64,000 nt of DNA. Source: Nitrosopumilus sp. Its GTDB lineage: Archaea > Thermoproteota > Nitrososphaeria > Nitrososphaerales > Nitrosopumilaceae. The position numbers were made by a program, and so were the translations under genes. The DNA is taken from NCBI GenBank assembly GCA_965218695.1, contig OZ244651.1, forward strand, positions 192,001 to 256,000, in the 5' to 3' direction. Below, piece by piece: positions 11,718-61,338 of this stretch; positions within the stretch are counted from its first letter, which is position 1, and each line of letters opens with the position of its first letter. Below the pieces are notes generated by a model, which was given only the letters and a program-made list of their open reading frames with translations, had not been told where the DNA came from and searched no databases.

Positions 11718-11732
11718 CGACTCTGCTAAATA

Positions 11733-11740
11733 GATATAAG
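11733..11740 (+). promoter_or_regulatory. Putative TATA box GATATAAG
   Basis: AT-rich box ~24 bp upstream of the ATG at 11764, spacing typical of a leaderless archaeal gene. Confidence 0.5.
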
Positions 11741-11763
11741 GGAATTGGAGATCCTAAAACAAA

Positions 11764-12207
11764 ATGGCAACAAAGACAGTTCTTATATTTATACTGCCTG
11801 TATTGTTCTCGATAGTGTTTGGATCCGCAGTCATGGCCGATATTCTTCAAAAGCCTGATCGTACCCTGAATATGTGGCCTGTGTCATCTGAAACCACATC
11901 TCATTACACCCTTGAGATCATCGGACTATCCGAGCAATACTCTGTATCCGAGTCAATAACAGCACAATTCGTAGTATCTGATATCTCTTATGACTGCGCC
12001 GATCTGTATGTTACAATTTATTCAGAAAACGTGCCTGTCAGCCAAAACGGATTCTTTAAACAATGTTTTGGAAATGAAGGTATCATTCCGGTAGACGATA
12101 CGTTCTCTGAGACTATTGACACACCGGGATCCTATGAATTGGTGGCACAGCTTGGCTCAGAAAACTTGGGATTCATTCTGACTAGCGCAATATTTACTGT
12201 TAAATAG
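11764..12207 (+). CDS. Hypothetical secreted or membrane-anchored protein
   Basis: N-terminal hydrophobic segment, beta-rich body, host-like composition. Confidence 0.75.
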   Translation: MATKTVLIFILPVLFSIVFGSAVMADILQKPDRTLNMWPVSSETTSHYTLEIIGLSEQYSVSESITAQFVVSDISYDCADLYVTIYSENVPVSQNGFFKQCFGNEGIIPVDDTFSETIDTPGSYELVAQLGSENLGFILTSAIFTVK

Positions 12208-12252
12208 GAATATCCTATGATAAATATGAGGCGATTCTGAAGGTGTGGTGTC

Positions 12253-13170
12253 ATGGAAGTAACAGGTGATTCTCAAACCATAGAAGAGATCCGGGCAGAG
12301 ATTGATGAACTAAAAAGGAAGGCGATGATTCTGGATTCGTCGTCCACAAGCACTGTTAAGGAATCCTATTCAAAGAAATCCGTACCAAGGCCCACAGCCA
12401 AGAAACCTGCCGCAAAGCCTGCAGCCAAGAAACCTGCCGCAAAGCCTGCAGCCAAGAAACCTGCCGCAAAGCCTGCAGCCAAGAAACCTGCCGCAAAGCC
12501 TGCAGCCAAGAAACCTGCCGCAAAGCCTGCAGCCAAGAAACCTGCCGCAAAGCCTGCAGCCAAGAAACCTGCCGCAAAGCCTGCAGCCAAGAAACCTGCC
12601 GCAAAGCCTGCAGCCAAGAAACCTGCCGCAAAGCCTGCAGCCAAGAAACCTGCCGCAAAGCCTGCAGCCAAGAAGCCTGCAGCCAAGTCCAAACCAAAAA
12701 AATCCACAGCCAAGAAACCCGAGCCCAAAGAATCTGAAAAAACACCAGAGGAGGAGATGGAGGCAAACCTCTCTGATGAGGAGATTGAAAATTTTCGGAT
12801 TGAAAAGGTCGACATGGATAAACTCACAAACAAGGTATGCGTCATTCTGGCAGAACACGAATCAAACGGAATGCTTCAAAACGAACTGTGGAAGAAGCTC
12901 AAACTCTCAAATCGTGATGGTTCGCGTCTGTCATTGAAGCTTGAGAGAATGGGAACCATTACCCGAGAGAAGCTTCTTCAGAAGAACCGCTGGACTTACA
13001 AACTAATCCTAAAAAAGACCCCAGTCAGTACCAAATCGATCGAGAATGCCCCCTGTCTAGTGTGTCCTGTTGAACAAAGATGTACCATAGACGGTGAAAT
13101 CAGCCCTAAAAATTGTCAGCTTATTGAGGACTGGGTAATCAATTCGATGAAGAAGCCGAAGTCCCGATGA
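12253..13170 (+). CDS. RPC34-like / TFE-beta transcription factor (wHTH + FeS-cluster Cys motif) with Lys/Ala/Pro repeat N-terminus
   Basis: C-terminal [23 protein letters not shown] matches the archaeal RPC34/TFE-beta Cys motif; winged-helix-like segment upstream. Confidence 0.78.
12395..12687 (+). repeat. 27-bp coding tandem repeat, 10 perfect units plus a partial unit (AKKPAAKPA)
   Basis: CAGCCAAGAAACCTGCCGCAAAGCCTG repeated at 12395-12664. Confidence 0.95.
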
Positions 13171-21417: not shown

Positions 21418-22364
21418 CTTGTTCAATTGGCTTGGCTTTGAATATAACAGTTGTTTGCGCGTTATGTCAAAGGCAGTGGTCAAGTCCAAACCCATGGAGT
21501 TGTGGGCATGGCTGTGGAGATGTTTATGGATGGAATGGTGCCAGATCATATCATTCTCTTGCCCCCGAACATCCAGAAGATGGTCTGGGATACCGATCTC
21601 TAAGATACCGCCTACCTCATGCTGATAGACATGGGAACAGGAAGGTGCAGATCTGATTGGATGAATACTGCACAGGTCCCAATGGGCTGTGGCGACTTGC
21701 TGTTTTTTACGAGGTTGGTGAATACATGATAACCCTACCCACCCACCACATGTGGCGGGCTGACCCCTAATTACGCATGGTCGCAAAGACCTGGTTGTTG
21801 AATGGGGCTATCCAAGCTGCTGTGTTACTGGACTCCGAGTCATGATAGATGTATGCAGCTACCGGCCTGTCACACAAAAAAAGGGAGGTGAAAGAAATAG
21901 AAAAGAGTATTGGAATTGACATAGGAAAGAGAAAATGTGTAACGTGTATAATGGATCACAAGGGGACAATCCTGGAAAAGTCATCGTACAACAACACGTC
22001 CCGGGAGGCATTGGAGTTTGCAGCATATCTAAAGGCCACATACGGCCAGTGCAAAGCAGTCTGCGAATCCACCGGAAACCACTGGATTAAGACTGCAGAC
22101 GCCTTTGAATCCGCCGGAGTCCCGCTGACGCTTGCCAATCCGTTCAAGGTCAAGGCAATCGCATGGGCCAAAATAAAAAACGACACCATAGACGCAAGAA
22201 CGCTTGCCAACCTGCTGCGGGCAGACCTGGTTCCAGGCTGCCACATAGGTTCGGCCGAATCCAGGGGAATTAAGCAGGTCCTCAGGTACCAGATGACCCT
22301 AGTGCAGGACCGGACAAAAGTGATCAACTTTGTGCACACGCTGACAGACAAATACGACATAAAT

Positions 22365-24015
22365 GTAACTGCATAGTTTTTTGATCAAATGTTGAACTCC
22401 ATGCCTACGCGCGTCTATGCAGTTTTTTGACGTGGAGCCAGGCCCTCGCGCAGGATCGTGCCAAGATCATCTCCCCTTGCCTTGCATGTCTGCTTGATGC
22501 TCATCAGCGTGGCAATGGCATCTGCGCCATCCTTGGATCTGCTCCCGTTGCTGTTCTTGCGCAGGATGACGCACGGCCTGATGGCCCGCTCTGCCCGGTT
22601 GTTGTGGTATTCGACGCCGTCTGTCTCCAGAAACGCAAACAGGTGATCCCTTTCCCGCACCAGCCTCTTGCGCATCCTGTTGCAGTGCTTGCAGTCGCGG
22701 TCCTTTTCGAGCCTGCCGATAAGTGACGCGATACGACGATCCAGCCTCTTCTTTGCGGCAAGCGCGTCTGCCCCTCCCGGAACGGCGCCGTCGATGTGCG
22801 AGTCCCACAGTATCGCGCGCAGCGTCCTTGCGTGACGCTTGTAGTCGTAGCCGGGATTCTTGTATTTCAGGGTGTCCTTGATGTCCCGGGCGTAATGAAG
22901 GTGGCACTTTTGGTGTTCGGATCCGATGACGTTCCACGCGGCCCACGAGTCAGACGTGACGCATCCCGGGTAGTCCTTGCCGAGCATCTTTTTTGGAACC
23001 TTCGAGTTCCTGTGGCGGTGCACCTCGTAGATTACGGCGTACCTGGCTACAGCCACCCACAGCCAGTAGTTCGTGCCGTCGACGCGCCAGATTGTCTCGT
23101 CCCCGTTTATCGCACGCGAGTTTCTTACCTCCTCCTTGATCTTCTCGTACAGCGGCCCGAGCTCCCGGGCCATCCTGCACACCATGCGGTTTATCGCAGA
23201 TTCCGTGATTCTTGCCGAGTACATCATCATGACAATATTGCATATTCTGAGGTCTGACATGCCGTGCAGCCGGAGGATGACCATCATTATCATAAAGTTG
23301 ATCCCGTACCTGGAGTTTGGCAGTGCCAGCGGAGTCCTGCCGGACACGGTCCTCTTGCAGTTCCTGCAACGCCTTCTCTTTAGTCACCTTGATGTGCTTT
23401 AGTTCCGTCTTGGCAGCCTCCCTTACCACCTTTGTGTACGTGGACACGCATTCTGAGAGGTCGGAGCTGCCGCAGTTGTCGCACGTGTGGGGATCTGCCG
23501 TCTCCTCTGCGTCTATTCTTTCAGGACGCGCAAGGCCCGTGCGTTTGTGGTCACTTGGCTTGCCCTTGCCCTTGCCCTTGCCCTTGCCCTTGCCCTTTGC
23601 GCGGCGCCGGGTACTGCCGGTCTTTTTGTCCGGTTTTGCGCCGATGCTCCTTGCAACGGCAGCCGATATGATGCCCTTTGCCTCCTGCAACTCTGCCGTG
23701 AGATCCTGGATCTGTTTGAGGGCGGCAGCGTAAAGATCAGCGAGTTTGGCCATCTGCCGGTCTTTTTCGGCCATCTGCCGGTCTTTTTCGGCCATCTGCT
23801 CTGCCATCACACCCACTTTTTCCTCCAGTTCTGCAATCCTTGACTCGGAATTATCATCAGACATATGCAAACCGTGGGCAACAATGATCTAAAAATTAGG
23901 ACGGAGAGAAAAACTCGATCAAGTGATCAAAAATAGTTTTAAAAAATTAGACAGACGCGGATTTTCTGATTGTAGATATGGAGTTCAACATTTGATCAAA
24001 AAACTACACAGATAC
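22365..24015 (-). mobile_element. Single-ORF IS66-like element with ~38-bp TIRs
   Basis: GTAACTGCATAGTTTTTTGATCAAATGTTGAACTCCAT and its inverse; 8-bp TSD ACATAAAT (22357-22364, 24016-24023). Confidence 0.92.
22415..23870 (-). pseudogene. IS66-family transposase, frameshifted near 23375
   Basis: Coiled coil and first CxxC in one frame; CRNC, GDETIW, QKCHLH and NNRAERAIR in another. Confidence 0.82.
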
Positions 24016-24623
24016 ACATAAATCCAAAAAATGCAGGGACCAGCGTCTGGAGACCAAAGGTCCTAAAGTACCTTGAAGGAGCAGACATGAAGAATTTCAG
24101 GGACAGGTTTGTTCTGGACGGCTGCATATCGCAGATACGGTACTACAACGACGAGATAAAAAAGACCGAAGACGAGATCAAGTGCTACGTCCGAGACGCC
24201 CATGCCCCGAAGATACTGCTGAGCATGACGGGAATGAACGTGTTTTCTGCTGCACTGCTGGCAGCAGAGATCGACACCATCGAAAGGTTTGAGAACCCAA
24301 AAAAGCTCGTATCCTGGGCAGGCATGTGCCCGACGCTTCACCAGTCAGGCGACACGCTATACCACGGCAGGATGAAAAAGGACTCGAACCGGAAGGTCAA
24401 CTGGATCATGATCCAGTGTGCGCTTGTGGCAGTGTTCCATGACGCAAGGATGAAGGAACACTACACGCGCCTCCTGAAGAGGCACAAGCACCACATCGCC
24501 ATAACGCACGTCGCAAACAAGATGCTGACGATCATCTGGCACATGCTGACAGAAGGCAACCTGTACGAGGACAGAAACGAGAAACTGTACCGCGCCAAGA
24601 TCAAGGAAGTTATGAAGGCGTAG

Positions 24624-24903
24624 ACGCAGAACCGGCAATGTCCGTAGACGATGATGCCTGATCTAGCGGATGCTGTGCACAAATTATGGGAATGGCGGGT
24701 GTTTTTACATGAATGCTGGGGGGCCAGCCCCCCAGACCCCCCGAAGGAGGATTATGCATGTCACGCCGCGGGACAAAAGCCGCATTTTTGCGGATCTGGT
24801 AGGATCCTGCATGCAGGTAACGCTTAAGAAGTCAAAAAACATACCCAAGGTGACAAGTTGGACGCAAAACCTGGATAAGTCCGGGGATGGGTTAACATAG
24901 ATG
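24624..24903 (+). ncRNA. Candidate IS110/IS1111 bridge (seek) RNA region, 3' non-coding end
   Basis: ~280-bp non-coding end with blocks conserved in 4 copies, GC hairpins and segments complementary to the insertion target; transcription not shown. Confidence 0.55.
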
Positions 24904-24971
24904 CGTAATTCTTCTGACCGCCTAGTCTAGTCCGATACGTTCAATGATCCCATGATCGCCCGCACGCGATA

Positions 24972-25981
24972 ATGATCAAACACAACAGACGGGAAAGATA
25001 CTGACAGTACTACGAACTTGCAAACGAAGTCGAGGCATCCCACCTGAGGAGGACGCTGATTGAAATGATTCTTGAGAACCCCTGCCCGCGCTCCGAAAAC
25101 GACAACAGGGGCCGTCCTCGGATTCACTCCAAGGACAAGCTGGATTTTGCCTGCCTGCCTGCCTGCTGATGAGGGCATACAACAACACATTCCGCAGGAT
25201 CGAGTCAGACCTGCACGACATGCGGACTCCCTGGGACGGCGAACCCGTGCCGGATCACACCACGATAGTCAGGCACCTCCAGATCATCCCGCCAGACTGG
25301 ATGGATTTGGTGCTGGCCGAGACTGCTCGCCGATGCATCGCCGGGGCGTCCGGGGCAACCGGACCGCTGGCTGCAGACAGCAGCGGAGTGGAGACTACCC
25401 GGTACGAGGACATCGAAAAACCCTGCAAAAGGGAGCGCGATTTCGTCGAGATGCGCCAAAAGGCCTACTGGAAATACCACGTAACGGCCATCATGGGGCT
25501 ACAGATCGTGCTGGCCGCGTTTGGCACGCCTGGCAACGTCAACGACGTCACGATGCTGCCAGTCATGCTGGCAGAGATCAGGCGCCGCGGGTATGACTTT
25601 TCGGGGCGCGTCTTTGATGCGGACCGCGGGTATGACGCCGACTACAACTTCAAGGAGCTGTTCTGGATGGGCATGACGCCCAACATCAAGCAGAGAAAGG
25701 ACGCCGTCAGCAGGGGCAAGCCAAGCAGGAAGAAGGCAGCCGGGCTGTTTGACTCGCACGAGTACAGGACAAGAGCCCTGGTGGAAGGCATATTCGGGGC
25801 CGAGGAGAGCCGGCGGCACCAGCTTCACTGCAGGTTCGTGCGCGAAGACAATCGGCGCCGGTTTGCCAAGGGACGAGCAATCTCATGGAACATCCGGATC
25901 CTCAACCGGTTTAAGTGTGCCTGCCGGCTAAATATACCGATACCGTCCTACGGCGGTTCGGCTCGCACGGAGTGCGCCTGA
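24972..25981 (+). pseudogene. IS5-family transposase with the same TGA and GCCT frameshift as 3613-4622
   Basis: Appears identical to copy 1 by eye, including both lesions. Confidence 0.85.
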
Positions 25982-26200
25982 TGATCCAACCCGTCCGTAT
26001 CTGACCCCGTCCGTGAGAATGCGGCGGGAAATATTCAGATTAGGACATATCGGAATTATGCACCAACCTCGTTTTTCAGTAGATGGAAATGTGTTTTTTC
26101 AGGACAACCTGATCTTGCCGCGTTCCTTATGATCACTAGGCGTTCGCCATTATTAGACTCTGGGTGTTAAAAATGGAGCGCGCGAGTCTTACACGTTCAA

Positions 26201-27346
26201 ATGAAAAACAAGCAATCGCTCCAAATACAGTCCGCCGAATCTGCATATAAGATCATCGGCCCCGTACTGTTTTCCCTGTTGCAGATCAAGTTCTCAGACA
26301 GGTACAACGCCCTATACGGACCGGTCCACTTTTTTGAACGCTTGTTTGGCATGTGCAGGCACACCGAATACGCAGAGACTGCATGGTCCAGCGACCCGGA
26401 CGGCGGGACGGGCATTCCCACGGGCAGGTGGCTGCTTGACAGGATACGCCATATCCGGTACGACTACATGTTAAAGCGGTGCCAGGCAATAACGGATCGC
26501 ACCGTGCGCAGGATGAGGCGGCACGGCATGTTCAGGGAGCCGGTGGACATTGCAATCGACAAACACCTGGTCTGCAGGTACGACAGGTTCCGGAGGATCG
26601 TCAACACCATAAAGTCAAAACCAAAAAAGGGAACGTACAACTTTAACTGCCTGGCGACTGCAAACTGCATCGTGGCAGGCTCCAGGGCGTTTCTGGCAGC
26701 CCGGCTGGTCAGAAGGGGAGATACAGACCTCGAGGTGGTCTCAGGACTGATAGCAGACTGCAGAAGGCAGGGGATAAGGATCAAGTCACTAAAGATAGAC
26801 CGGGAGTTCTTTTCTGTGGACATCATTAACATGCTGGAGCGTGAAGGGATCCCGTTCATGGTGCCTGCAATCAAGACCAAGGGCGTCAAAAAAGCCGTAG
26901 AGGAGTTCAAAGACGGCGGGAAGGCGACGGTGTCGCGGCATTCCATAGATTCGGGACGCGATACTGCCGAGTTTACACTGATAATCCAAAAGAGGAAGAA
27001 CGGCCACTTTACGCTTGCCACCAACGCCACGGTGCCGCAGGTGCTGGGGTTCGAGTCCAGCAACGGCCTGACAGGCGCACACGGATTCGCAGAACAGTAC
27101 CGTCTCCGCTGGGGAGTGGAGACTGCGTACAGCAACTACGAGTCACTCAGGCCCCGCACCACGAGCAGGAACGAGTCGGTGCGCATGCTGCTGCTGTTCT
27201 TCCCGATATTCATTTACAACGCCTGGGCGCTGGTCCGCCACCTGCTCCGGATCTCATTCCACGGCAGGCACATGACGCTCATAAAGATGCTCAGGCTGTT
27301 TCTCAGGTTCATGAAAGAGTTGGGCCTGGCCGAACCACCCACGTGA
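26201..27346 (+). CDS. ISH3/IS4-like DDE transposase
   Basis: IAIDKH, IDREFFS and YRLRWGVETAY. Confidence 0.9.
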   Translation: MKNKQSLQIQSAESAYKIIGPVLFSLLQIKFSDRYNALYGPVHFFERLFGMCRHTEYAETAWSSDPDGGTGIPTGRWLLDRIRHIRYDYMLKRCQAITDRTVRRMRRHGMFREPVDIAIDKHLVCRYDRFRRIVNTIKSKPKKGTYNFNCLATANCIVAGSRAFLAARLVRRGDTDLEVVSGLIADCRRQGIRIKSLKIDREFFSVDIINMLEREGIPFMVPAIKTKGVKKAVEEFKDGGKATVSRHSIDSGRDTAEFTLIIQKRKNGHFTLATNATVPQVLGFESSNGLTGAHGFAEQYRLRWGVETAYSNYESLRPRTTSRNESVRMLLLFFPIFIYNAWALVRHLLRISFHGRHMTLIKMLRLFLRFMKELGLAEPPT

Positions 27347-27542
27347 ATTGTGTTTCTTGACGCATTCGTATGCAAGTGCCGGCCGCAAGGCTGCGCGGAC
27401 ATGCAGCAACCGGTGCCGGGGTGCCAACGGAATGTGCGCAGGACAGTCAACTGGGATTATCTTTCGGATTTGTGGGCAGCTGGTTGTTAATCATGGGTTT
27501 GATAAAGGGGGTGTCAGGCATGTGCAATTAGACACATTTCCA

Positions 27543-29734: not shown

Positions 29735-29763
29735 CATTTCCAACTACTGTTTTTTACGGTAAC

Positions 29764-44475: not shown

Positions 44476-45624
44476 GGGGTTGTCGCATAAATCAGTCAAG
44501 CCATAACCTGCCTTGCTTTTAGGTTCCGTCTGGCATGTACTAGGAATTCATCGCGGCTTTTTTGGCGTCATGCGTAGGCTACCCTGACTCCCAGGTTCGT
44601 GGTATGCTCCAGCCTGTTGAGGACCTCGATGTTCCAGCCTATCGCCTTTAGCAGCCCGAACCTTCTCTGGTTAACGTCCTTGCGGAACCTGCAGTACAGC
44701 TGGTGGTGTTCTGTCTCCTCGGCTCCGAATATTCCCTCGATCATCCCGCGCTGCTTGTAGAGGATGGCATCGAACAGTTTGGCTGCCTTTTTCCGATGTT
44801 TTTTGCCCCTGCTCTTTGCGTTCTTTCTCTGCTTGATGTTGGGAACCATGCCAAGCGCAAAGACGGCCTCGCAGTTGCTGTCAGAGTCGTATCCCTTGTC
44901 GGCGTTGAACCTCCACCCGGCAAAGATTCCCTTCATTCCAGCAATGCGGTTCAGCATCGTCTTGAGCACGGCAGTGTCCGTCGTGCGGTTGGACGTGATC
45001 CTGCAGGACAGTATGATCTGCAGTCCGACTGCCGCCGTCACGTGCCACTTGACGTACCGTTTCACCCTTTTTGGGACGAATTCGTGCCTGATTTTGTCCG
45101 GCCAGTCGGCGGTTTCGTACCTGTCCGTCTCCACTCCGGTGCTGTCTGCGGCCAGTATCCCTTCTATCGTGTCGGCTGCATCCATGCATTGGCGCGCAGT
45201 CTCCCTCAGGATTCGCTCCAGCCACCGGATTGGAATCGTCTCCAAGAATCGCGCGATCGTTGAATGGTCCGGAACCGGCTCGTGCCACGGAAGGTACCAC
45301 CCGGGCACGCAGTTTTGCGCGTCCCTGGACGTGAGACCCTCGAAGATCATGATGGCGCATATGCAGGCCATCTTCTCTGCCGAGTGTATTCTGGGTCTTC
45401 CGCGTTTACAGTTGCCTTGTTTTGCCGGCAGTGGGTTCCTCCGGACCAAAGACACGATAGTTTTTATCCGAAAGTCACGCTCTGTAGTATGTGCCCTGTG
45501 ATAACTATTCCAGTAGTTAGTCCTTCTCTTGTGATTCATTGAAGGAGGGCACACTTTATGATCCTTACCGGTATGAGTCAATGGTACGCGATCATACGCT
45601 CAACGTGATTTATGCGACAACCCC
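44476..45624 (-). mobile_element. IS5-family element
   Basis: TIR GGGGTTGTCGCATAAATC; 9-bp TSD CGATGCAGG (44461-44469, 45625-45633); 6 extra G at the left junction. Confidence 0.9.
44568..45581 (-). CDS. IS5-family transposase (intact)
   Basis: PVPDHSTI, AADSTG, ADKGYD and YKQRGMIEGIFG. Confidence 0.92.
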   Translation of the reverse strand: MTHTGKDHKVCPPSMNHKRRTNYWNSYHRAHTTERDFRIKTIVSLVRRNPLPAKQGNCKRGRPRIHSAEKMACICAIMIFEGLTSRDAQNCVPGWYLPWHEPVPDHSTIARFLETIPIRWLERILRETARQCMDAADTIEGILAADSTGVETDRYETADWPDKIRHEFVPKRVKRYVKWHVTAAVGLQIILSCRITSNRTTDTAVLKTMLNRIAGMKGIFAGWRFNADKGYDSDSNCEAVFALGMVPNIKQRKNAKSRGKKHRKKAAKLFDAILYKQRGMIEGIFGAEETEHHQLYCRFRKDVNQRRFGLLKAIGWNIEVLNRLEHTTNLGVRVAYA

Positions 45625-45668
45625 CGATGCAGGACAACAATGAAATACCAATACTGTGTGATAATGGT

Positions 45669-46980: not shown

Positions 46981-47034
46981 TTGTACATGTATGATGCATC
47001 CTTCTATTATATTATCCTTGGTAATAGCCTGTTG

Positions 47035-48550
47035 AATACATGATAACCCTGCCCACCCACCATGTGTGACGGGCTGACCCCTGATTATGCATGGTCGTCA
47101 AGGCCTTCTTGTTGAATGGGGCTATCCGAGCTGCTGGGTTACTGGACTTCGAGTCCTGATAGATGCATGCAGCTTCCAGCCTGTCACACACGGAAAGGAG
47201 GTGAGAGAAATAGAAAAGAGTATTGGAATCGACATAGGAAAAAGGAAATGCGTGGCATGCGTGATGGAACACGACGGGGTGATCCTCGAAGAGTCATCGT
47301 ATGACAACACGGCCAAGGACGCGCTAGAGTTTGCCACGTCCGCAAAGGCCAGGTACGGCACATGCAGGGCAGTCTGCGAGTCCACCGGGAACCACTGGAT
47401 AAAGACTATCGATGCCTTTGAACACGTGGGAATCCCCATCGCCCTTGCAAACCCGTTCAAGATCAAGGCAATCGCGTCTGCCAGCATAAAAAACGACACC
47501 ATCGACGCAAGAACGCTTGCCCACCTGTTAAGATCCAACCTGATTCCCGCCTGCCATATTGGTTCGGCCGAATCTAGGGGGATAAAACAGATCCTCAGGT
47601 ACCAGATCCGCCTGGTGCAGGACAGGACGAGGGCGATAAATTTCGTGCACACGCTGACTGACAAGTATGACGTAAACCCGAAAGACGGCGGGAAAAACGT
47701 CTGGACCAAAAGGGTCCTGGCGTACCTTGAAGAAGCGGACGTGGAGAGTCCCCATGACAGGTTCGTCCTGGACCGCTGCATAGCCAAGATACGGCACTAC
47801 AATGACGAGATAAAAAAGACCGGGAACGAGATCAGGCGCTACGTCCGTGACGCCCACGGCCCAAAGATACTGATGAGCATTACCGGAATGGATGCGTTTT
47901 CTGCGGCGCTCCTGGCAGCAGAGATTGACACCATCGACAGGTTCGGGAACCCAAAAAAGTTCGTGTCCTGGGCGGGCATGTGCCCGACGCTCCACCAGTC
48001 AGGCGACACGTCATACCACGGCAGGATGAAAAAGGACTCGAACCGGAAGGTCAACTGGGTCATGGTCCAGTGCGCGCTGGTGGCAGTGAGACACGACCCG
48101 AGGATGAAGGAATACTACGTGCGCCTCATGAAGAGGCACAGGCACAACATCGCCATAACGCACGTCGCAAACAAGATGCTGACGATCATCTGGCACATGT
48201 TGACAGAAGACAACCTGTACGAGGACAGAAACGAAAAGCTGTACCGCGCCAAGATCAGACAAGTCATGAGGGCGTAATCCGGGAACCGGTGATGATAGGC
48301 GGTACCGGATCTAGCGGATGCTGTGCACGAATTATGGGAATAATGAAACATGCTTGCATGAATGCTGGGGGACGCCCCCCAGACCCCCCGGAAGGGATTA
48401 TGCATGTCACTCCGCGGGGCAACAAGCCACGTTTTCTGCGGATCTGGCAGGATTCTGCATGCAGGTAATGCTTAAGAAGACAAAAAACACACCCAAAATG
48501 ACAAGCTGGACGCAAAACCTGGATAAGTCCGGGGATGGGTTACATAGATG
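47035..48550 (+). mobile_element. IS110-family element, copy 3 (second variant)
   Basis: Ends AATACATGATAACCC ... GGGTTACATAGATG. Confidence 0.9.
47087..48277 (+). CDS. IS110-family DEDD recombinase (true start probably GTG near 47201)
   Basis: GIDIGK, CESTG, KNDTIDA and HQSG. Confidence 0.93.
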   Translation: MHGRQGLLVEWGYPSCWVTGLRVLIDACSFQPVTHGKEVREIEKSIGIDIGKRKCVACVMEHDGVILEESSYDNTAKDALEFATSAKARYGTCRAVCESTGNHWIKTIDAFEHVGIPIALANPFKIKAIASASIKNDTIDARTLAHLLRSNLIPACHIGSAESRGIKQILRYQIRLVQDRTRAINFVHTLTDKYDVNPKDGGKNVWTKRVLAYLEEADVESPHDRFVLDRCIAKIRHYNDEIKKTGNEIRRYVRDAHGPKILMSITGMDAFSAALLAAEIDTIDRFGNPKKFVSWAGMCPTLHQSGDTSYHGRMKKDSNRKVNWVMVQCALVAVRHDPRMKEYYVRLMKRHRHNIAITHVANKMLTIIWHMLTEDNLYEDRNEKLYRAKIRQVMRA

Positions 48551-48635
48551 CATAATTACGCCTAGCTGCAGTGAGTGATGTTGACTGTGTTCTAGACCGA
48601 AAAAGCTAAAGATCAGTGGATCCTAGAGTGTCGGA

Positions 48636-49610
48636 TTGAAGACGGACAACGAAAAATACATCAGGCGCGGCCAGGCATTAATTATTCGCGATGACCCGGA
48701 GAGATGCATCGAGGTCAAAAAGGCCAACCGTCACAAGGTCGGGGCTCCTTTCCAGTATGCAGACTCGTTCTTTGCCTCCCTGGCGGCAGTAAAATCGATG
48801 ATCCACATCCCCTACAGGAACCTGATGGGCATGGTCGTGGAGGTGCTCAGGGAGGAGCAAGTGCCCCACTATACCACCATCTTCAGAAGGATCCAGTCGC
48901 TGGATGTCCAGAGGAATGGCAGAATCATCACGGTCACCGGCAGCAAGGGCGCTGCAATCAGGCTTGCAGTGGATTCTACCGGCCTCAAGCAGCACAACAG
49001 GGGGGAGTGGATACGGCAAAAGTGGAAGGTAAGACGCGGATTTGTAAAGATGCACATTCTGGTTGACGTGGATACAAAAAAGATACTGGCAGTCCGTGTC
49101 ACCGATGATCGGACAGGGGATTCTCCCATGTTCGTTCCGCTGCTTGATGACGCTCTGGAGAACTGCGTGGGTCCGACATCAGAGTCCCGTCATGCTGGCA
49201 GTCCCGCAAAATGTTCTGCGTATGGCGATGGCGCTTACGCCTCTCGGGACAACCTAAAGGCATGCAGGGAGCGCAACGTGACCCCGCTCATCAAACTCAA
49301 GGTAAGCTCCACCCCGAAAGGAAAGGGCGCAGGCGACGTGTGGGGCATGGCAGTCCGGGACCAGTTTGGCGGCTCTGATCCCAATCGGGTGAAATGGCTG
49401 CCCGATGATGAAAAGAAAAGTAATCAGGAGGCGTGGAAGACTCGAGTCGGATACGGCAAAAGGTGGATTGTGGAGATTGTGTTTTCTGCATTCAAGAGAA
49501 TGTTCGGGGAACACCTGTACTCATTGAAATGGAAGAACATGATCCAGGAGGTCAATCTCAAGGTGGCCACCTACAACAAGCTGATAGACATGGGAGCAGG
49601 GGCAATGTAG
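48636..49610 (+). CDS. IS5-family (IS903-like) transposase
   Basis: PHYTTI, VDSTGLK, RRGFVKMH, GDGAYA and YGKRWIVEIVFSAFK. Confidence 0.92.
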   Translation: MKTDNEKYIRRGQALIIRDDPERCIEVKKANRHKVGAPFQYADSFFASLAAVKSMIHIPYRNLMGMVVEVLREEQVPHYTTIFRRIQSLDVQRNGRIITVTGSKGAAIRLAVDSTGLKQHNRGEWIRQKWKVRRGFVKMHILVDVDTKKILAVRVTDDRTGDSPMFVPLLDDALENCVGPTSESRHAGSPAKCSAYGDGAYASRDNLKACRERNVTPLIKLKVSSTPKGKGAGDVWGMAVRDQFGGSDPNRVKWLPDDEKKSNQEAWKTRVGYGKRWIVEIVFSAFKRMFGEHLYSLKWKNMIQEVNLKVATYNKLIDMGAGAM

Positions 49611-49661
49611 AGTCGGATAGGCGAATCCGGTACAAGTCTTGGGTGACTGAGTTGAATTATG

Positions 49662-51187
49662 CATCTATGTAACCCATCCCCGGACTTATCCAGGTTTTGC
49701 GTCCAGCTTGTCATTTTGGGTGTGTTTTTTGTCTTCTTAAGCGTTACCTGCATGCAGAATCCTGCCAGATCCGCAGAAAACGTGGCTTGTTGCCCCGCGG
49801 AGTGACATGCATAATCCCTTCCGGGGGGTCTGGGGGGCTGGCCCCCCAGCATTCATGTAGAAACATCCCACAATTCCCATAATTCGTGCACAGCATCCGC
49901 TAGGGCCGGCACTGCATTTACTGACACCACCGGTTCCGCGTCTACGCCTCCTTCATGACTTGTCTGATCTTGGCGCGGTACAGCTTTTCGTTTCTGTCCT
50001 CGTACAGGTTGTCTTCTGTCAACATGTGCCAGATGATCGTCAGCATCTTGTTTGCGACGTGCGTTATGGCGATGTTGTGCCTGTGCCTCTTCATGAGGCG
50101 CACGTAGTATTCCTTCATCCTCGGGTCGTGTCTCACTGCCACCAGCGCGCACTGGACCATGACCCAGTTGACCTTCCGGTTCGAGTCCTTTTTCATCCTG
50201 CCGTGGTATGACGTGTCGCCTGACTGGTGGAGCGTCGGGCACATGCCCGCCCAGGACACGAACTTTTTTGGGTTCCCGAACCTGTCGATGGTGTCAATCT
50301 CTGCTGCCAGGAGCGCCGCAGAAAACGCATCCATTCCGGTAATGCTCATCAGTATCTTTGGGCCGTGGGCGTCACGGACGTAGCGCCTGATCTCGTTCCC
50401 GGTCTTTTTTATCTCGTCATTGTAGTGCCGTATCTTGGCTATGCAGCGGTCCAGGACGAACCTGTCATGGGGACTCTCCACGTCCGCTTCTTCAAGGTAC
50501 GCCAGGACCCTTTTGGTCCAGACGTTTTTCCCGCCGTCTTTCGGGTTTACGTCATACTTGTCAGTCAGCGTGTGCACGAAATTTATCGCCCTCGTCCTGT
50601 CCTGCACCAGGCGGATCTGGTACCTGAGGATCTGTTTTATCCCCCTAGATTCGGCCGAACCAATATGGCAGGCGGGAATCAGGTTGGATCTTAACAGGTG
50701 GGCAAGCGTTCTTGCGTCGATGGTGTCGTTTTTTATGCTGGCAGACGCGATTGCCTTGATCTTGAACGGGTTTGCAAGGGCGATGGGGATTCCCACGTGT
50801 TCAAAGGCATCGATAGTCTTTATCCAGTGGTTCCCGGTGGACTCGCAGACTGCCCTGCATGTGCCGTACCTGGCCTTTGCGGACGTGGCAAACTCTAGCG
50901 CGTCCTTGGCCGTGTTGTCATACGATGACTCTTCGAGGATCACCCCGTCGTGTTCCATCACGCATGCCACGCATTTCCTTTTTCCTATGTCGATTCCAAT
51001 ACTCTTTTCTATTTCTCTCACCTCCTTTCCGTGTGTGACAGGCTGGAAGCTGCATGCATCTATCAGGACTCGAAGTCCAGTAACCCAGCAGCTCGGATAG
51101 CCCCATTCAACAAGAAGGCCTTGACGACCATGCATAATCAGGGGTCAGCCCGTCACACATGGTGGGTGGGCAGGGTTATCATGTATT
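49662..51187 (-). mobile_element. IS110-family element, copy 4 (inverted)
   Basis: Reverse complement of the copy 3 ends. Confidence 0.9.
49942..51135 (-). CDS. IS110-family DEDD recombinase
   Basis: Protein identical to 47087-48277 except the last residues. Confidence 0.93.
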   Translation of the reverse strand: MHGRQGLLVEWGYPSCWVTGLRVLIDACSFQPVTHGKEVREIEKSIGIDIGKRKCVACVMEHDGVILEESSYDNTAKDALEFATSAKARYGTCRAVCESTGNHWIKTIDAFEHVGIPIALANPFKIKAIASASIKNDTIDARTLAHLLRSNLIPACHIGSAESRGIKQILRYQIRLVQDRTRAINFVHTLTDKYDVNPKDGGKNVWTKRVLAYLEEADVESPHDRFVLDRCIAKIRHYNDEIKKTGNEIRRYVRDAHGPKILMSITGMDAFSAALLAAEIDTIDRFGNPKKFVSWAGMCPTLHQSGDTSYHGRMKKDSNRKVNWVMVQCALVAVRHDPRMKEYYVRLMKRHRHNIAITHVANKMLTIIWHMLTEDNLYEDRNEKLYRAKIRQVMKEA

Positions 51188-51432
51188 CAACAGGCTACTT
51201 GGTAACGGACGTGCAGTACGGACTCGCCCAATACATTTCTAGGGACGAATTTGCATGAATCATGCCTGTGTTTATAAGGGATCCGAGTGCGTACGGCGTG
51301 CATGCTCGCCGCCTCCAAAATCAGGCGTGTCCATTTGCATGATTCATGTCCATGCAGATCCCGTAGGCCGGATTTTGCAAATGTGGAGAACGCCCGGGCA
51401 TATCAACAGATTTATCTCATGACTGCATACGG

Positions 51433-55350: not shown

Positions 55351-56438
55351 TAGTGTCAATCAAAAGTCTTCTACGTCAGTCTGAGCGTAACATTTTTTGA
55401 TCACTCCGCACTACCGCCCACATGGATGAAAAAAGCAAAAAGCTGTTAATCCAGGCCTACAAGAAAGAGAAGAGGGGAACCATAAAGGACAGGATCCACG
55501 CCGTCTGCATGGTCAAGATCAGGGGGCTGGGCGTATCCGAGGTGGCATCACTGTGCTTTTGCGACCCGCACACTGTCACAAGCTGGGTCCGGCATTTTGA
55601 TAGCGAGGGTCTTGCAGGCCTGGAAGACAGGCCCCGCCCGGGCAGGCCGCCCAAGGTCGGGCTTGAGAAGATTGCGGGGCTTGCAGCAAGGACTGGCAGC
55701 ATCACAACTCCAAAGCAGCTCAAAGAAAACATACGCAAAGAATTCAAGGTGACATACCACATTTCAAACGTCACAAAGATAATGCACAGGCTTGGCCTGT
55801 CTGCCAAGACGGCCCGGCGCATCCACGTCAACAGGCCAGAGATCAAAAAGATCAGGCAGTGGCAGCGCAACGCCAAAAGGCGGATTTCACGCCTGCAAGA
55901 GAAGGGTTTTCTCCCAGTCGTCTTTGACGAGGCCATATTTGTAGACGATCCGGCATCGGGCGTAAAGTATTGGTCGCCAGAAGGCGAGCCGATTGTCACG
56001 ACATACAAGGGACGGCACGGAAAGGTGGTGGCATACGGTTCCATTGTAACAGACGGCAGGCAGTTCTTCAGGACGCATGAAAAATTTGACAAGGAGACGG
56101 TCCTGCAGTATCTCAAGGATCTGGTCAGGCATTTTGGAAAGGTGGTCGTAATCATGGATAATGCGCCACAACACAAGTCAAGGATCGTGATGAAATTTCT
56201 AAAGGAAAATCCCGACATCAAGGTCATGTGGCTTCCAGCTGCAACGCCCGAGCTTAGCGGCGTGGAGGAGTACTGGCACCAGGCAAAACGTAACGTGCTG
56301 GTGTCCGAGTACTATGCCACGATAGTGCAGATGCGCAACGCGATGTCGGAGTATTTCAGGACCGCGCGTCCAAGGATTGACGTAATGGAGTTTATCTGTA
56401 GAAAGTCCCTAAATGTAAAAAACTTTTGATCGACACTA
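55351..56438 (+). mobile_element. IS630-family element
   Basis: TIR TAGTGTCAATCAAAAGT / ACTTTTGATCGACACTA; TA duplication. Confidence 0.9.
55422..56429 (+). CDS. IS630-family transposase
   Basis: GRPPK, FDEA, MDNAPQH and PELSGVEEYW. Confidence 0.93.
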   Translation: MDEKSKKLLIQAYKKEKRGTIKDRIHAVCMVKIRGLGVSEVASLCFCDPHTVTSWVRHFDSEGLAGLEDRPRPGRPPKVGLEKIAGLAARTGSITTPKQLKENIRKEFKVTYHISNVTKIMHRLGLSAKTARRIHVNRPEIKKIRQWQRNAKRRISRLQEKGFLPVVFDEAIFVDDPASGVKYWSPEGEPIVTTYKGRHGKVVAYGSIVTDGRQFFRTHEKFDKETVLQYLKDLVRHFGKVVVIMDNAPQHKSRIVMKFLKENPDIKVMWLPAATPELSGVEEYWHQAKRNVLVSEYYATIVQMRNAMSEYFRTARPRIDVMEFICRKSLNVKNF

Positions 56439-57375: not shown

Positions 57376-57550
57376 TGCAGGCAGTCATTTTATTGTTCAT
57401 GGCCCAACTCTAAATGATGTGGAAAATGGCAGTAAGTTTGACTACAGCGCAGGCGTCAACAGCATAACATGATAAAAAAATTCGACATTCTTTTTTATTT
57501 TTTTATATTAATATTTTTAAAAATGGAAGCATGTTTGGGAATATTCCTGC

Positions 57551-60049
57551 TCATACCAGAGGCCTCTCTCCTTCAACAGGCTCGACAATCTTTGTCTCCT
57601 CCCCGCCAATAATCCTCTCAAGAATCTCCCGTGACGCATTCTTGTGCAGGTACTCGTTGTTGTTTCCGCATCTGTATGAGAACGTGCAGCGGGGGCACCC
57701 TGACTCTGCCTTGCATGGGCACTCCCCCACGATGGCAAGTCCCCTCCTGAGCACCTTCTCAAACCTGTCATAGAGGGCCTTGCTGGCACCGCTGCCCCCC
57801 ACCGCCCCGTCATATACAAAAATCAGACCCGACGTACCCAGCGATATGCCGCCAAGATCCTGGGAAACCCCCCCGGTAATCATGTTGCCTCCCTCAATCA
57901 CCACATGCTCTGTCGCATGGTATCCGCTGGCCTCTACATACTCTGGATTCTCTGCAGTGCCGGCGGATTTGACGGGCCTTGGAGCATGAAAGACGATTCC
58001 CTTTGTGACAAAGTCATACTCGATGGGTTCATCGAGCAGAAACTTTTCCCCCTGACCGACCTCTTCGCCAAATCTGATCCTGACATACCCGTAGACTGTC
58101 TTTTTGATGTGCAGCCTGCAGAATGCAACCTCGATGCCGTACGCATTCCTCCTCTCCATGACCATCCTGATCGTGGGCCATTCCTCGGTAAGCGCCCTTG
58201 TGTAGTACGGGTAATCCCAGGTAATCCTCTCCAGCCTGGCGTGCCTCCCGGCAGCATCAAATTCACTTACCCTGTACTTGGTGCCTGCCAGAAGATAGAT
58301 GGCATCCTTGTGCAGCTCCCCCAGCGCAATCGGAAGTGCCCTCTCTCCCACCTTTTTGCCATCCAAAAGTATGTCTACTGACTCCCCAATCCCCCTGATG
58401 CTGTACTGCGCCAGCTGCCGAATCCTGTTCGGAACCGGAAGTACCCTGTCGTTGGAAACTTTGAGATTCCCCCTCATGATGTGGCTTTCTATGACATCCC
58501 TGTGCTCTGCCATCCCGCGTACCGATATTGGCATGTCGCAGGCCATGGCCAGTATCTGAAACTCCTCTATGAACGGGTTGTCCGGATCAACGTAGATCCT
58601 CTCGATGTCCTCAAAGTAGTCATCAGAATGATTCCTATAGTACTGGGAGATGGGATCATTTCCAAGCACCAGGAACGCGTACCCGCGCTGCCCCTTTCTT
58701 GCCGATCTCCCTATTCTCTGGATCAGCCTGTTTACCGGTACTGCCGATGAGACCACACAGTCAACATCCCCAATGTCTATGCCAAGTTCCAGCGTGGGGG
58801 TGCACGATATTGCCTGCAGGCTGCCATCCCTGAACTGTTGCTCGACTGCCCTCCTGTAGCCCGACATCAGGCCCGCCCTGTGAACCCTTATGTCGATCTT
58901 TTTTCGCTGCGCCTGAATCGCCAGCAGTTCGGCGTTCAGGTGGGAGTTGCTGAAGATCATCGTCTTGTGGTGCTGCTTTGTCATCTTTTTTGCAATATCC
59001 GTCATCAGGTTTCTCTGTGACATGAGGGACGGAAACAGCATTGCAAAGTCTATGCCTCCCCTTCTTCCTGCGCCGCAGATAACACGCATCTCTTGGCCAA
59101 ACAACTGACTGCAAAACTCTTCGGAGTTTTCAAGGGTTGCAGATGCTGCCACGATCTGCAGTTTGTTCCTGCATATTCTCCTGAACCTCTTTATGATGTA
59201 GTGCACGTTTGAGCCAAAGATTCCAGAGTAGACATGCGCCTCATCAACCACAAGAATCCTGGCTGATGCCAGAAGCGATGCAAACCTAGTATGCCTCCAC
59301 ATGTGGTAGTGTAGCACGTCAAAGTTTGTCACTATTATTTTGGGAGAATTCTTGATGATTCTGATTCTGTCTACTTGTGCAGTATCCCCGTCAAACACCT
59401 CTGCGCTAATCCCCATTGCCCCTGCAAGCTCCCGAATCTTTGTAATCTGATCGCGTGCAAGCGCCTTTGTGGGATATACAAACACCGCAAAGACTCCCGT
59501 GCCTGCCTCCCCTGCAACCCTCTGTATTGTGGGAACCATGAACGCCTCGGTCTTGCCTGACGCGGTGGGTGCCTCAATGACCACGCTCTGTCCTGCCATG
59601 ATCCCTGTGATCGCCTCCTCCTGAAACCTGTAAAACCTCTCTATTCCCCTTTCTGCCAGATGCCTGCAGATGGGCTCACTCAGGCCCGACTCGTTCACAC
59701 TGACACCCATGTCCGGTTCGGGACCTGTCATGTCCCTATACTGCGCCACATAGTACCTGCGCGAGAAGAGTATCCCCCTGACTGTCTCGTCTGGCTCGGA
59801 GTCTCTGATCATTGCAGCAACCTCTTCCCTGCTTCTGATCATCTCAAGCTCTTCAAACTTCTGCCCAGCCCCGTCTGTGACCAGTCCTTGGTCAAACCTT
59901 GCAAGAAACTCCAGAAATATCTCATCTGTACTCCCTAACGGTTCAACCATGTCTCCGATTCCGCAACTGCTGCATGAGACGTGCATCATCTTGTTGAATG
60001 TCTTTTGAATATCCATTCCTGATCTGCATTTGGGACAGGCAAACTTCAC
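57551..60049 (-). CDS. DEAH-box helicase with C-terminal DUF1998-like Zn domain (Hrq1/SftH-like); start reassigned to GTG 60049
   Basis: APTASGKT, DEAH, SAT, TLELGIDIG, QRIGRSAR and CPC...GCPRC. Confidence 0.9.
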   Translation of the reverse strand: MKFACPKCRSGMDIQKTFNKMMHVSCSSCGIGDMVEPLGSTDEIFLEFLARFDQGLVTDGAGQKFEELEMIRSREEVAAMIRDSEPDETVRGILFSRRYYVAQYRDMTGPEPDMGVSVNESGLSEPICRHLAERGIERFYRFQEEAITGIMAGQSVVIEAPTASGKTEAFMVPTIQRVAGEAGTGVFAVFVYPTKALARDQITKIRELAGAMGISAEVFDGDTAQVDRIRIIKNSPKIIVTNFDVLHYHMWRHTRFASLLASARILVVDEAHVYSGIFGSNVHYIIKRFRRICRNKLQIVAASATLENSEEFCSQLFGQEMRVICGAGRRGGIDFAMLFPSLMSQRNLMTDIAKKMTKQHHKTMIFSNSHLNAELLAIQAQRKKIDIRVHRAGLMSGYRRAVEQQFRDGSLQAISCTPTLELGIDIGDVDCVVSSAVPVNRLIQRIGRSARKGQRGYAFLVLGNDPISQYYRNHSDDYFEDIERIYVDPDNPFIEEFQILAMACDMPISVRGMAEHRDVIESHIMRGNLKVSNDRVLPVPNRIRQLAQYSIRGIGESVDILLDGKKVGERALPIALGELHKDAIYLLAGTKYRVSEFDAAGRHARLERITWDYPYYTRALTEEWPTIRMVMERRNAYGIEVAFCRLHIKKTVYGYVRIRFGEEVGQGEKFLLDEPIEYDFVTKGIVFHAPRPVKSAGTAENPEYVEASGYHATEHVVIEGGNMITGGVSQDLGGISLGTSGLIFVYDGAVGGSGASKALYDRFEKVLRRGLAIVGECPCKAESGCPRCTFSYRCGNNNEYLHKNASREILERIIGGEETKIVEPVEGERPLV

Positions 60050-60087
60050 AATATGTGCAGGCAGGGACTGATTTATTGCTATATCTG

Positions 60088-61300
60088 GGGTGTGTCCTAG
60101 TAATAAAAAATGCCATTTCATGTGCCAGGATGCCAAAGACATGATTGGTGCCAGAACCCGTCGACACCAACAGTGCCGCACCATTAATCCCCCACAACCC
60201 ATAAAATCCCCCAAATCCAAGACACTGTGCGGAGGCTCCGCTAGGAGGCGCGTGTCAAGACGCGCCGGTTACGCTGCAAGTGTTGCGATTTGATCCTGTG
60301 TGAGCCTGCCGTCTTTTGCCTGCAATCTGGCCACGAGCTCGACGTTGTAGCACATGACACGGATCGCAGTCTCCCTTCTCCGGTTCTCGTGTTTTCGGCA
60401 CCTGGTGCTGTCCCCGTACATCTTCTTGAGGGCTGCAAAGACTGCCTCGATGATGCTGCGCTGGTGGTACTGCGAGTCAAACCTGTCCTTGTCATCCATG
60501 TACAGGCTTACCATTTCGCGCCACGACTGACTTCCCCTGGCGTTGCGTATGGTGTTGGATTTTGGCTTGATGCGGGGCACCATTCCCATCGCAGATATCA
60601 TGTTGCACATGAGCCTTGCCAGGTATGCAGAATCCAGGCAAAAGTCACCGGTGCCTAGGCCGAGCCTGCCGAGCATCGCGTACAGCCCGTTTATGTCTGC
60701 CACCGCGCTGTCAGTTGCCATGCAGTCGATTATCACCCTGGTGCGTATGTCCACGATTGCGTGCAGCTTGACCCATCCCTTTCTGGTACGAAAACTGTCG
60801 GTCCTGACGTTAAACCACCTGACAAACCGCAGGTACGAGTACCCGGTACTGTCTGCTGCCAAGGAGCCTGTCCCCACCTCCCTGATGGCAATCCGGTGTG
60901 TCTCTGCCAGATACCATTCCGGGATCAGGCCGTAGGCGCGTGCTATCGTGCTCTTGGAGGGAATTCTGTCCAGGCCCATCCTGGCTGCCATGACGCTGTT
61001 ACTTCGGAGAATGCCGACCATCTTGCGGTAGGTCGTGCGCTGTGCCTCAAGCATGATGCAGACAGCTGCCATGGCGCCAGGCGGGTATGCCGTCATGCCG
61101 CCCAAGCCGGGCCAGACGGCGTACGGATCCCCAAGCTCTTTGATTATCCCCAGCACGGTATTCAGCATGAGGCCCGGCATGTACTGCTGAACCAGATCGT
61201 ACTGTCGTTGGTCGCGTTTCTTTGTAGTCATTAGGCGATGCCGTGATCTGCCGATCCATATCTTTTGTCATCCTAGAGTATATCTCTCTAGGACACACCC
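60088..61300 (-). mobile_element. 1213-bp IS5-like element, copy D
   Basis: Same TIRs; 9-bp TSD CTATATCTG. Confidence 0.93.
60269..61231 (-). CDS. IS5/IS4-type DDE transposase (320 aa)
   Basis: Paralogue of 7805-8767. Confidence 0.92.
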   Translation of the reverse strand: MTTKKRDQRQYDLVQQYMPGLMLNTVLGIIKELGDPYAVWPGLGGMTAYPPGAMAAVCIMLEAQRTTYRKMVGILRSNSVMAARMGLDRIPSKSTIARAYGLIPEWYLAETHRIAIREVGTGSLAADSTGYSYLRFVRWFNVRTDSFRTRKGWVKLHAIVDIRTRVIIDCMATDSAVADINGLYAMLGRLGLGTGDFCLDSAYLARLMCNMISAMGMVPRIKPKSNTIRNARGSQSWREMVSLYMDDKDRFDSQYHQRSIIEAVFAALKKMYGDSTRCRKHENRRRETAIRVMCYNVELVARLQAKDGRLTQDQIATLAA

Positions 61301-61338
61301 CTATATCTGCCATCATTTATTAGACAAGAGCAGATTCC

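Follow-up and report, generated by a model that had tools for sequence, protein, structure and literature searches.

Integration guided by transcription initiation factors is a eukaryotic theme, represented by Ty3, Ty1, Tf1, and the Dictyostelium elements. For prokaryotic insertion sequences (IS), the usual explanations of target choice are short sequences, DNA structure, replication forks, and selection. In this work, we describe IS in a 64,000-nucleotide stretch of a Nitrosopumilus sp. genome (contig C1, OZ244651.1, positions 192001-256000; hereafter the window) and throughout the same assembly. The target-site duplications (TSDs) of many of these IS lie just upstream of host promoters, which consist of the TFB-recognition element (BRE) and the TATA box. 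It is likely that a subset of IS picks its target at insertion by reference to the host promoter, and the promoter bound and bent by the TATA-binding protein (TBP) and transcription factor B (TFB) is the most likely cue. Archaeal TFB and yeast Brf1 are both TFIIB-family factors.

Among the closest described systems is the long terminal repeat (LTR) retrotransposon Ty3, whose integration at yeast RNA polymerase III (Pol III) genes is directed by TFIIIB, with TBP and Brf1 (10.1101/2021.07.27.453949, PMC6673722). Ty3 shares with the present case base-pair anchoring at a TATA-binding initiation complex (a putative one here), a safe haven in a compact genome, and repeated use of sites. In Ty3, a retroelement integrase acts at the transcription start site (TSS), downstream of TATA, whereas here several families of DNA transposons insert upstream of the BRE. 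The elements are not LTR retrotransposons with a retroviral-type integrase; they are IS that have inverted repeats and TSDs and encode transposases of the DDE_Tnp_1, IS66, or rve type. Their TSDs are not a few base pairs from the TSS downstream of TATA; they precede BRE/TATA, at a distance of 35-44 bp from the start codon. Targeting upstream of transfer RNA (tRNA) genes is described for TRE5-A and DGLT-A of Dictyostelium and for Ty1 and Ty3 of yeast (PMC6101501, PMC5006619). Unrelated mobile elements converge there, as here, on one class of promoter-proximal safe sites in gene-dense genomes. Those elements are eukaryotic retrotransposons restricted to Pol III genes, whereas the insertions here are at protein-gene promoters of the single archaeal polymerase and none is at tRNA genes.

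In E. coli, hot spots of IS5 and IS1 upstream of the glpFK, bgl, flhDC, and fucAO promoters are attributed to destabilized DNA and DNA-binding proteins (PMC5493358, PMC11043490). IS5-family DDE elements are found there, as here, at reproducible positions before promoters, and DNA structure and bound proteins matter. Those insertions are at a few loci under activation selection and are activating, whereas the insertions here are genome-wide, belong to many families, keep a fixed distance to the core promoter, and appear neutral. E. coli IS5 has a 4-bp YTAR target duplication. The TSDs here are 5-15 bp long and unrelated in sequence. Non-random placement of archaeal intergenic IS relative to the orientation of neighboring genes was reported by Florek, Gilbert & Plague in 2014 (as cited in PMC9208149). 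The citing text gives neither base-pair anchoring to BRE/TATA nor family-specific offsets. In the literature searched, with partial coverage, no report of IS anchoring to the archaeal BRE/TATA was found.

The assembly has 2,627,169 bases in 9 contigs, and the GC content of the main contig is 52.8%. RadA encoded in the window is 94% identical to RadA of a Nitrosopumilus metagenome-assembled genome, and the best 80 loci are all from Nitrosopumilaceae/Thaumarchaeota. Therefore, the organism is a high-GC member of Nitrosopumilaceae. Repeats at 85% identity or more occupy 706,651 bases (26.9% of the genome). Interval clustering of self-BLAST hits gave 41 families with at least 3 interval copies, and 13 further groups came from repeating the procedure once most of these had been removed in part from the genome. 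The resulting library contains 38 families, with element ends and TSD lengths set for each family from aligned flanks. Full-length copies were excised iteratively, those with perfect TSDs first, which left an IS-free remainder of 2,110,384 bases. Among the 366 full-length copies, 320 have a TSD: 183 are intergenic, 80 are genic, and 57 are in or beside other IS (47 nested, 10 adjacent). These 57 were excluded from the distance statistics, and the 46 copies without an acceptable TSD were left out of every site count. F40 was dropped because its ends were not settled, and the TSDs of F28 and G0/'A' were not settled either. Elements designated 'A', 'B', 'C', and 'E' stand outside the genome-wide counts.

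Genes were called with a self-trained dicodon caller (2109 genes, 82% coding, 31% GTG or TTG starts). Before 1040 confident start codons, the AT content is ~0.50 and rises only at -29 to -24, where it reaches 0.70-0.75. Expectation maximisation revealed a motif composed of a BRE-like A-rich patch followed by TTTWAWA, starting mostly at -39 to -36. This sharp BRE/TATA signal spans -37 to -24 before start codons, as would be expected if mRNAs are mostly leaderless.

The TSD edge is 35-44 bp from a start codon in 46 of the 183 intergenic insertions. If insertions were spread evenly over these spacers, 9.7 would be expected (maximum 24 in 20,000 simulations). When distances below 35 bp are forbidden, 18.5 are expected against 45 observed among 180 usable insertions (maximum 32). 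None of the 20,000 simulations reached the observed peak count. The promoter-side distances form a narrow peak, with 3 at 30-34 bp, 34 at 35-39 bp, 13 at 40-44 bp, and 5 at 45-49 bp. At single-base resolution, the 238 promoter-side distances include 11 at 36 bp, 7 each at 37, 38, and 39 bp, 4 at 40 bp, and none at 23-28 bp. The stop-codon side shows no distance peak. The genome-wide histogram of distances to start codons against a random intergenic null, proposed as a check in the original prediction of promoter-anchored insertion, gave a narrow peak.

The effect depends on the IS family. It is seen in 14 families, which include IS5-like elements, DDE elements with 5-bp TSDs, one IS66 family, rve-type families, and one TnpB-like family. 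The fractions of unique copies in the peak are 12/22 for F6, 3/6 for F29, 3/5 for F30, 4/9 for F19, 4/15 for F10, 5/18 for F4, 2/5 for F31, 2/6 for F33, 2/9 for F16, 2/8 for F18, 2/4 for F35, 2/2 for G10, 1/3 for G5, and 1/3 for G8. No copy in the peak was found for F0 (0/17), F12 (0/14), F11 (0/14), F7 (0/14), F13 (0/11), F9 (0/9), and F2 (0/5). In a permutation test, none of 5000 label shuffles was as extreme as the observed heterogeneity among families.

A second test does not use gene calls. The BRE/TATA matrix was scored at fixed offsets from the TSD edge, and a site was counted if either of its sides had a match in the top 1% at offsets of -3 to +3. In the 14 families, a match is present at the TSD edge in 91 of 115 unique sites, compared with 28, 21, and 18 in three control offset windows. 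Matches are also present at 51 of 70 sites outside the start-codon peak (controls 12-17) and at 14 of 21 genic sites (controls 3-4). The remaining families, including IS630-like and Harbinger-like families and the IS66 families F0 and F7, show a match in 26 of 148 sites, with 29-33 in controls. Among the motif-bearing sides, 68 of 96 have, at 33-46 bp, a start codon opening an open reading frame (ORF) of at least 40 codons (24 in the control window). Therefore, many of the sites outside the peak are promoters mis-annotated by the caller. The AT content of the promoter-side flank climbs to 0.87-0.96 at +10 to +13; that of the distal flank stays flat. The gap between the TSD and the T-run of the TATA box is mostly 5-8 bp in F6 (mode 7), 5-7 bp in F16, F30, and F33, 8-10 bp in the families with 5-bp TSDs, and 9-11 bp in F4. 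It is within 5-11 bp in 88 of 95 cases.

The families have the following Pfam domains and TSD lengths. F6, F16, F30, F33, 'B', and 'E' encode DDE_Tnp_1 (IS5-like), with or without DUF772 or DDE_Tnp_1_5. In this group, TSDs of 8-10 bp and lengths of 1213-1363 bp fit the IS903-like group of the IS5 family, whose members are about 1.05-1.4 kb long and make 9-bp TSDs. F10, F19, F31, G5, and G8 show a weak DDE_Tnp_1 match and a 5-bp TSD. F0, F4, and F7 are IS66; F18, F29, and F35 are rve; G10 is TnpB-like; F2 and F11 are DDE_Tnp_4; F12 and F13 are IS630-like; and 'A' belongs to the IS110 family. TSDs are 2 bp in the IS630-like type and 3 bp in DDE_Tnp_4, and 4-7, 8-10, or 12-15 bp in the others. 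The TSDs of the rve-type F18 and F35 are unusually long (12-15 bp). The median identity of copies to their family consensus is ~99.9%, and the copies are therefore young. At least 366 full-length IS from about 40 families at this identity point to a recent burst involving many families, in a Nitrosopumilaceae genome with unusually high GC content.

All eight junctions in the window were re-derived, and their TSD pairs are identical letter for letter. The features are as follows.

778-786, 7727-7735, 10496-10504, and 11718-11726: four copies of the first target CGACTCTGC, a 9-bp TSD
778-786: leftmost copy of CGACTCTGC, 15 bp past the stop codon of gene 143-763
787-4711, + strand: 'B' element, IS5-like, inverted repeat GAGGTTGGTG, TSD CGACTCTGC
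4717-7723, + strand: F4 (IS66) copy, TSD CTCCGACT
7736-8948, + strand: F6 (IS5-like, 9-bp TSD), target CGACTCTGC
8954-10492, + strand: second F4 copy, TSD CCCCGACT, at the junction of F6 and target
10505-11717, - strand: second F6 copy, inverted, same 9-bp target CGACTCTGC
11727-11766, + strand: intact promoter of gene 11764-12207, BRE-like TAAATA, TATA-like GATATAAG at 11733-11740
21711-26070, + strand: second B+A module, IS5-like, F7 nested at 22365-24015
21702-21710 (left) and 26071-26076 plus 29755-29757 (right): 9-bp TSD GTTTTTTAC of this B+A module
26077-29749, + strand: G5 (DDE, 5-bp TSD TTTTT at 26072/29750), F37 nested at 27543-29734
29758-29795, + strand: radA promoter, TTTATAAG at 29764-29771, ATG at 29793
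31699-33061, + strand: F30 (IS5-like), TSD TGTGAACC at 31691/33062
36610-40731, - strand: F19 (5-bp TSD TACTC at 36605/40732), F17 and F22 nested
44470-45625, - strand: element 'E' (IS5-like), 20-bp inverted repeat GGGGGTTGTCGCATAAATCA, TSD GATGCAGG at 44462/45626
47025-51197, no strand assigned: 'C' element with an IS110-type 'A' copy in each end, TSD CTTGGTAA at 47017/51198
55351-56438, + strand: F13 (IS630-like), TA target at 55349/56439, the exception
60088-61300, - strand: F6, TSD CTATATCTG at 60079/61301

The first site received five insertions, namely the B module, two copies of F6, and two of F4, resulting in four copies of the 9-mer. The downstream gene 11764-12207 encodes an unknown protein, and its ATG at 11764 is 37 bp from the TSD edge. 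Upstream of radA, G5 later split the right copy of the B-module TSD GTTTTTTAC. The ATG of radA is 35 bp from the B-module TSD edge and 38 bp from the G5 TSD edge. In a related genome, the radA promoter is identical letter for letter (TTTTTACGGTAACTTTATAAG...ATG) with ordinary DNA upstream. This uninterrupted promoter is an empty site. The TSD edge of F30 is 40 bp before the start of the L21e gene at 33110, and TTTTAAATA starts at 33077. F19 is 35 bp from the TTG start (36569) of a minus-strand isocitrate/isopropylmalate dehydrogenase gene, with TTAAATAA 3 bp from the TSD. One contig of the public run X1 joins 36609 to 40758 via 20 other letters and is read as a relative without the F19 insertion. 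Element 'E' is 35 bp before an in-frame ATG at 45669, with a TATA-like ATGAAATA at 45640. 'C' is 36 bp from the TTG start (46980) of a minus-strand SPFH gene, and AATATAAT is 3 bp from its TSD. F6 at 60088-61300 is 41 bp before the DNA methylase start at 61351, with TTTATTAG at 61316-61323. F13 is 149 and 137 bp from the flanking starts; it has a DDE_3 transposase and a TA duplication, in accordance with IS630/Tc1-mariner TA targeting. The remaining IS copies in the window are nested in other IS and not beside promoters.

The original prediction gave a TSD-to-TATA gap of 6 bp at 11726, 29757, 45633, and 61309, of 7-8 bp at 33069 (rpl21e), and of 3 bp on the minus strand at 36605 and 47017. With its own TATA calls, the four 6-bp gaps and both 3-bp gaps are reproduced, and 7 bp was found at 33069. 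Those boxes had been called by eye and described as partly weak; they are ambiguous by 1-2 bp, and the box at 45640 is weak. As a general rule, "exactly 6 bp" was rejected, since the gap is family-specific in the range of 5-11 bp. Position 29757 is correct as the end of the older B-module TSD, but the TSD of G5 ends at 29754. The targets were described as unrelated sequences, and the insertions are anchored on the BRE/TATA element and not on the target sequence. F13, named as the only deviating element, does deviate in the window, but genome-wide the Harbinger-like families and the IS66 families F0 and F7 also lack the pattern. The proposal that several DDE transposases are directed to promoters is supported in part: several unrelated types share the site, and the pattern behaves like a bias at insertion. 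It is not general, since two of three IS66 families and DDE_Tnp_4 are without it.

F6-like DNA was observed in 8 of 200 other Nitrosopumilaceae genomes searched. We inspected 17 F6-like loci from four genomes in three genera (G110, G006, G065, and G145), and 10 of them have recognisable inverted repeats and a 9-bp TSD. In 9 of these 10, a TATA-like box, called by eye, is located 7-8 bases beyond the TSD on one side, and an ATG is usually ~35-39 bases away.

The positional bias, its family specificity, its one-sidedness, and the recurrence at single sites are observed directly. Based on them, we infer that the bias arises at insertion rather than through a selective sieve. The proposed process is as follows. 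The staggered cut would be placed immediately upstream of BRE/TATA, so that the promoter-proximal TSD edge would land 5-11 bp before the TATA T-run and ~35-44 bp before the start of mostly leaderless genes. At least four transposase types would behave in this way: IS5-like DDE_Tnp_1 with 8-10-bp TSDs, DDE_Tnp_1 with 5-bp TSDs, one IS66, and the rve type with 9-15-bp TSDs. TBP and TFB would bind and bend the promoter DNA and leave its BRE side exposed, and this complex would be the cue; it would block the bound DNA and favor the first free turn upstream. The promoter would stay intact, the copy would be tolerated, and the same promoter edge would be open to further hits.

Pure selection after random insertion, in which the survivors are those sparing the promoter and the upstream gene and the anchoring merely reflects short spacers, is very unlikely. 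The ancestral spacer at the first window site is indeed only 60 bp long (23 bp after the stop codon plus 37 bp), and 6 of the 47 peak rows are from spacers under 80 bp. However, 28 of the 47 are from spacers at least 150 bp long, and the excess persists when distances below 35 bp are barred. A pure sieve is also unlikely because the effect is family-specific; selection on the flanks should ignore which transposase inserted, yet copies of the other families survive at other places in spacers and also within genes (59 of 148 sites are genic). TSDs of 8-10 bp overlap BRE/TATA in 4 cases and fall in an equally wide zone just outside in 27; for TSDs of 12-15 bp, the counts are 0 and 4. This rarity of overlap argues against a sieve because the duplication would leave an intact BRE/TATA beside the gene and be harmless. 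Convergent spacers should be the safest places, yet they are depleted (15 versus 31.3 expected), and divergent spacers are enriched (70 versus 53.6). The 14 families have 3 of 94 insertions in convergent spacers and the other families have 12 of 89. In a 2010 study by Plague, bacterial IS were reportedly enriched between convergent genes and depleted near promoters, a pattern shaped by selection. Such a pattern was not observed here. The youth of the copies also speaks against a pure sieve. Independent insertions recur within 15 bp at 15 sites (2-4 insertions each; ~24 pairs versus 3.0 expected), often from different families and mostly adjoining a start codon. Retention by positive selection, in which an insertion at the BRE edge usefully alters downstream expression through an outward promoter or the removal of an operator, is highly improbable as well. 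It has a precedent in E. coli IS5, which reportedly switches on silent operons from upstream positions. The orientation of IS relative to the gene is, however, random (27 same, 20 opposite), and this is evidence against outward promoters. The genes hit have no relation to one another and are either housekeeping or unknown genes, such as those for RadA, L21e, the dehydrogenase, the SPFH protein, and the methylase, and the same effect would be required of many families with different ends.

The nature of the cue is a separate question. TBP and TFB are a plausible candidate cue with two lines of indirect support, the use of equally scoring motifs and the BRE side facing the TSD at non-annotated sites (25 of 37). 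In three lower score bins, motifs in the promoter position are used at 5.3%, 5.2%, and 5.7%, other intergenic motifs at 0.4%, 0.65%, and 1.6%, and genic motifs at 0.04-0.4%; promoter-positioned motifs are thus used ~3.5-13 times more often than other intergenic ones. The alternative is an intrinsic DNA cue. In a 53% GC genome, TATA-like AT-rich tracts would attract these transposases even as naked DNA, for example through their flexibility, ease of melting, or destabilization under stress, and the cut would fall about one helical turn from the tract. Insertions inside the box or on the TSS side would kill the gene and be lost, so that only the upstream side remains. One site common to many unrelated transposases fits such a generic DNA property better than protein contact, and the motif is also present at 14 of the 21 genic sites. 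By arithmetic on the gaps, the TSD center is ~11-12 bp from the T-run in both 9-bp and 5-bp families, and this constant distance fits a steric or DNA-shape rule. The E. coli IS5/IS1 hot spots before promoters are likewise ascribed to destabilized AT-rich DNA (PMC5493358). We nevertheless regard this alternative as rather unlikely, in view of the lower use of equal-score motifs not before a start codon and of the ORF starts at 68 of 96 motif-bearing sides. The BRE side also faces the TSD on 59 of 75 sides with an ORF start and on 25 of 37 without, near the 448 of 603 at known promoters. Several points weigh against the reading of targeting by a bound promoter. The two highest score bins show similar usage of motifs in the promoter position and of other intergenic ones, on tiny counts. 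The orientation test is weak, given the 25 of 37 without an annotated start, and the genic sites without a start (6 of 9) are too few. It is unlikely that unrelated transposases share a protein contact, and the cue may be DNA shape rather than protein. Among the 41 tRNA genes called by aragorn in the IS-free genome, none has an insertion ~37 bp upstream; the nearest are at 78 and 90 bp. The evidence consists of fixed copies in one assembly and contigs from seven public runs. The 14 promoter-seeking families were grouped after the peak was seen, although the heterogeneity test, the non-peak subset, and the genic subset are independent of this grouping. The 18-column BRE/TATA matrix was trained on the same genome, and the gene caller is home-made, with its 31% GTG/TTG starts. 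An artefact of this pipeline, arising from wrong element boundaries or gene starts or from the training of the motif on these data, is nonetheless scarcely credible. The TSDs were checked letter by letter, and contigs from public runs join across nested IS exactly at the assigned boundaries. The motif test works without gene calls, with control offsets and other families flat. The pattern was first spotted by eye by an earlier reader, RadA relatives align from residue 1, and the pattern recurs in other genomes.

The observation is confirmed and holds genome-wide. Promoter-anchored target choice is supported, and the step through TBP and TFB is a well-motivated proposal. About 80% of 115 insertions from 14 families are at most a few bases away from a single landmark, the edge of BRE/TATA on its upstream side. 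Such targeting would explain how a 27% repeat load coexists with many intact housekeeping promoters. It gives a directly testable system for target choice, and IS junctions are possible markers for promoter annotation in uncultured archaea. It also bears on the antiquity of safe-haven targeting through TFIIB-family complexes. Tentatively, TBP and TFB on BRE/TATA could be a general landing pad for diverse DDE transposases, with the first free turn upstream as the preferred, harmless target. If so, Ty3/TFIIIB targeting would have a counterpart in prokaryotes, which might even be its evolutionary forerunner, and the tethering or steering of integrases by TFIIB-family complexes would predate eukaryotes.

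Several further observations concern the elements themselves. The F6 pair at 7736-11717 is in inverted orientation with one shared 9-bp target (TSD-F6-TSD-F6-TSD), and the same arrangement of two F6-like copies on one target is present at locus L120 of G110. Repeated promoter hits or targeting of the element's own ends could produce it. What is seemingly the same promoter (…GTTATTAAWGGGTGCCCCATCATGCA…ATG) carries F10 at ~568383 of C1 here and an F6-like element at locus L134 of the congener G110. This twice-hit promoter may belong to a mobile gene rather than an orthologous host gene. 'A', an IS110-family element with a DEDD transposase, is inserted in two different DDE elements, in each case 8 bp inward from a terminus: once in each 'B' copy (787-4711 and 21711-26070) and in both ends of 'C' (47025-51197). 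The arrangement resembles site-specific insertion of an IS110-type element into the ends of other IS. The 'B' element at 787-4711, with 'A' 8 bp inside its left end and F6 nested at 2236-3448, has its twin of 99% identity at 21711-26070. The F4 copy at 4717-7723 is broken at ~6017-7485 by a single-copy F24-like element encoding a 409-amino acid (aa) ORF, which the 75% identity filter of the catalogue missed.

One flank that resembled a tRNA by eye was not called by aragorn and was rejected. In the IS-free reconstruction of the region at 60088-61316, an 847-aa minus-strand ORF from 57551 extends 7 bases past the F6 target; either its 5' end or promoter was broken by F6, or its true start is further in. 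The left end of element 'E' (44470-44479) is a run of ten G, versus five in the right-end repeat, which may be due to slippage or a homopolymer error in the assembly. A tandem array with a 27-bp period, seen as a ladder of self-hits, is located at 12386-12687 within gene 12253-13170.

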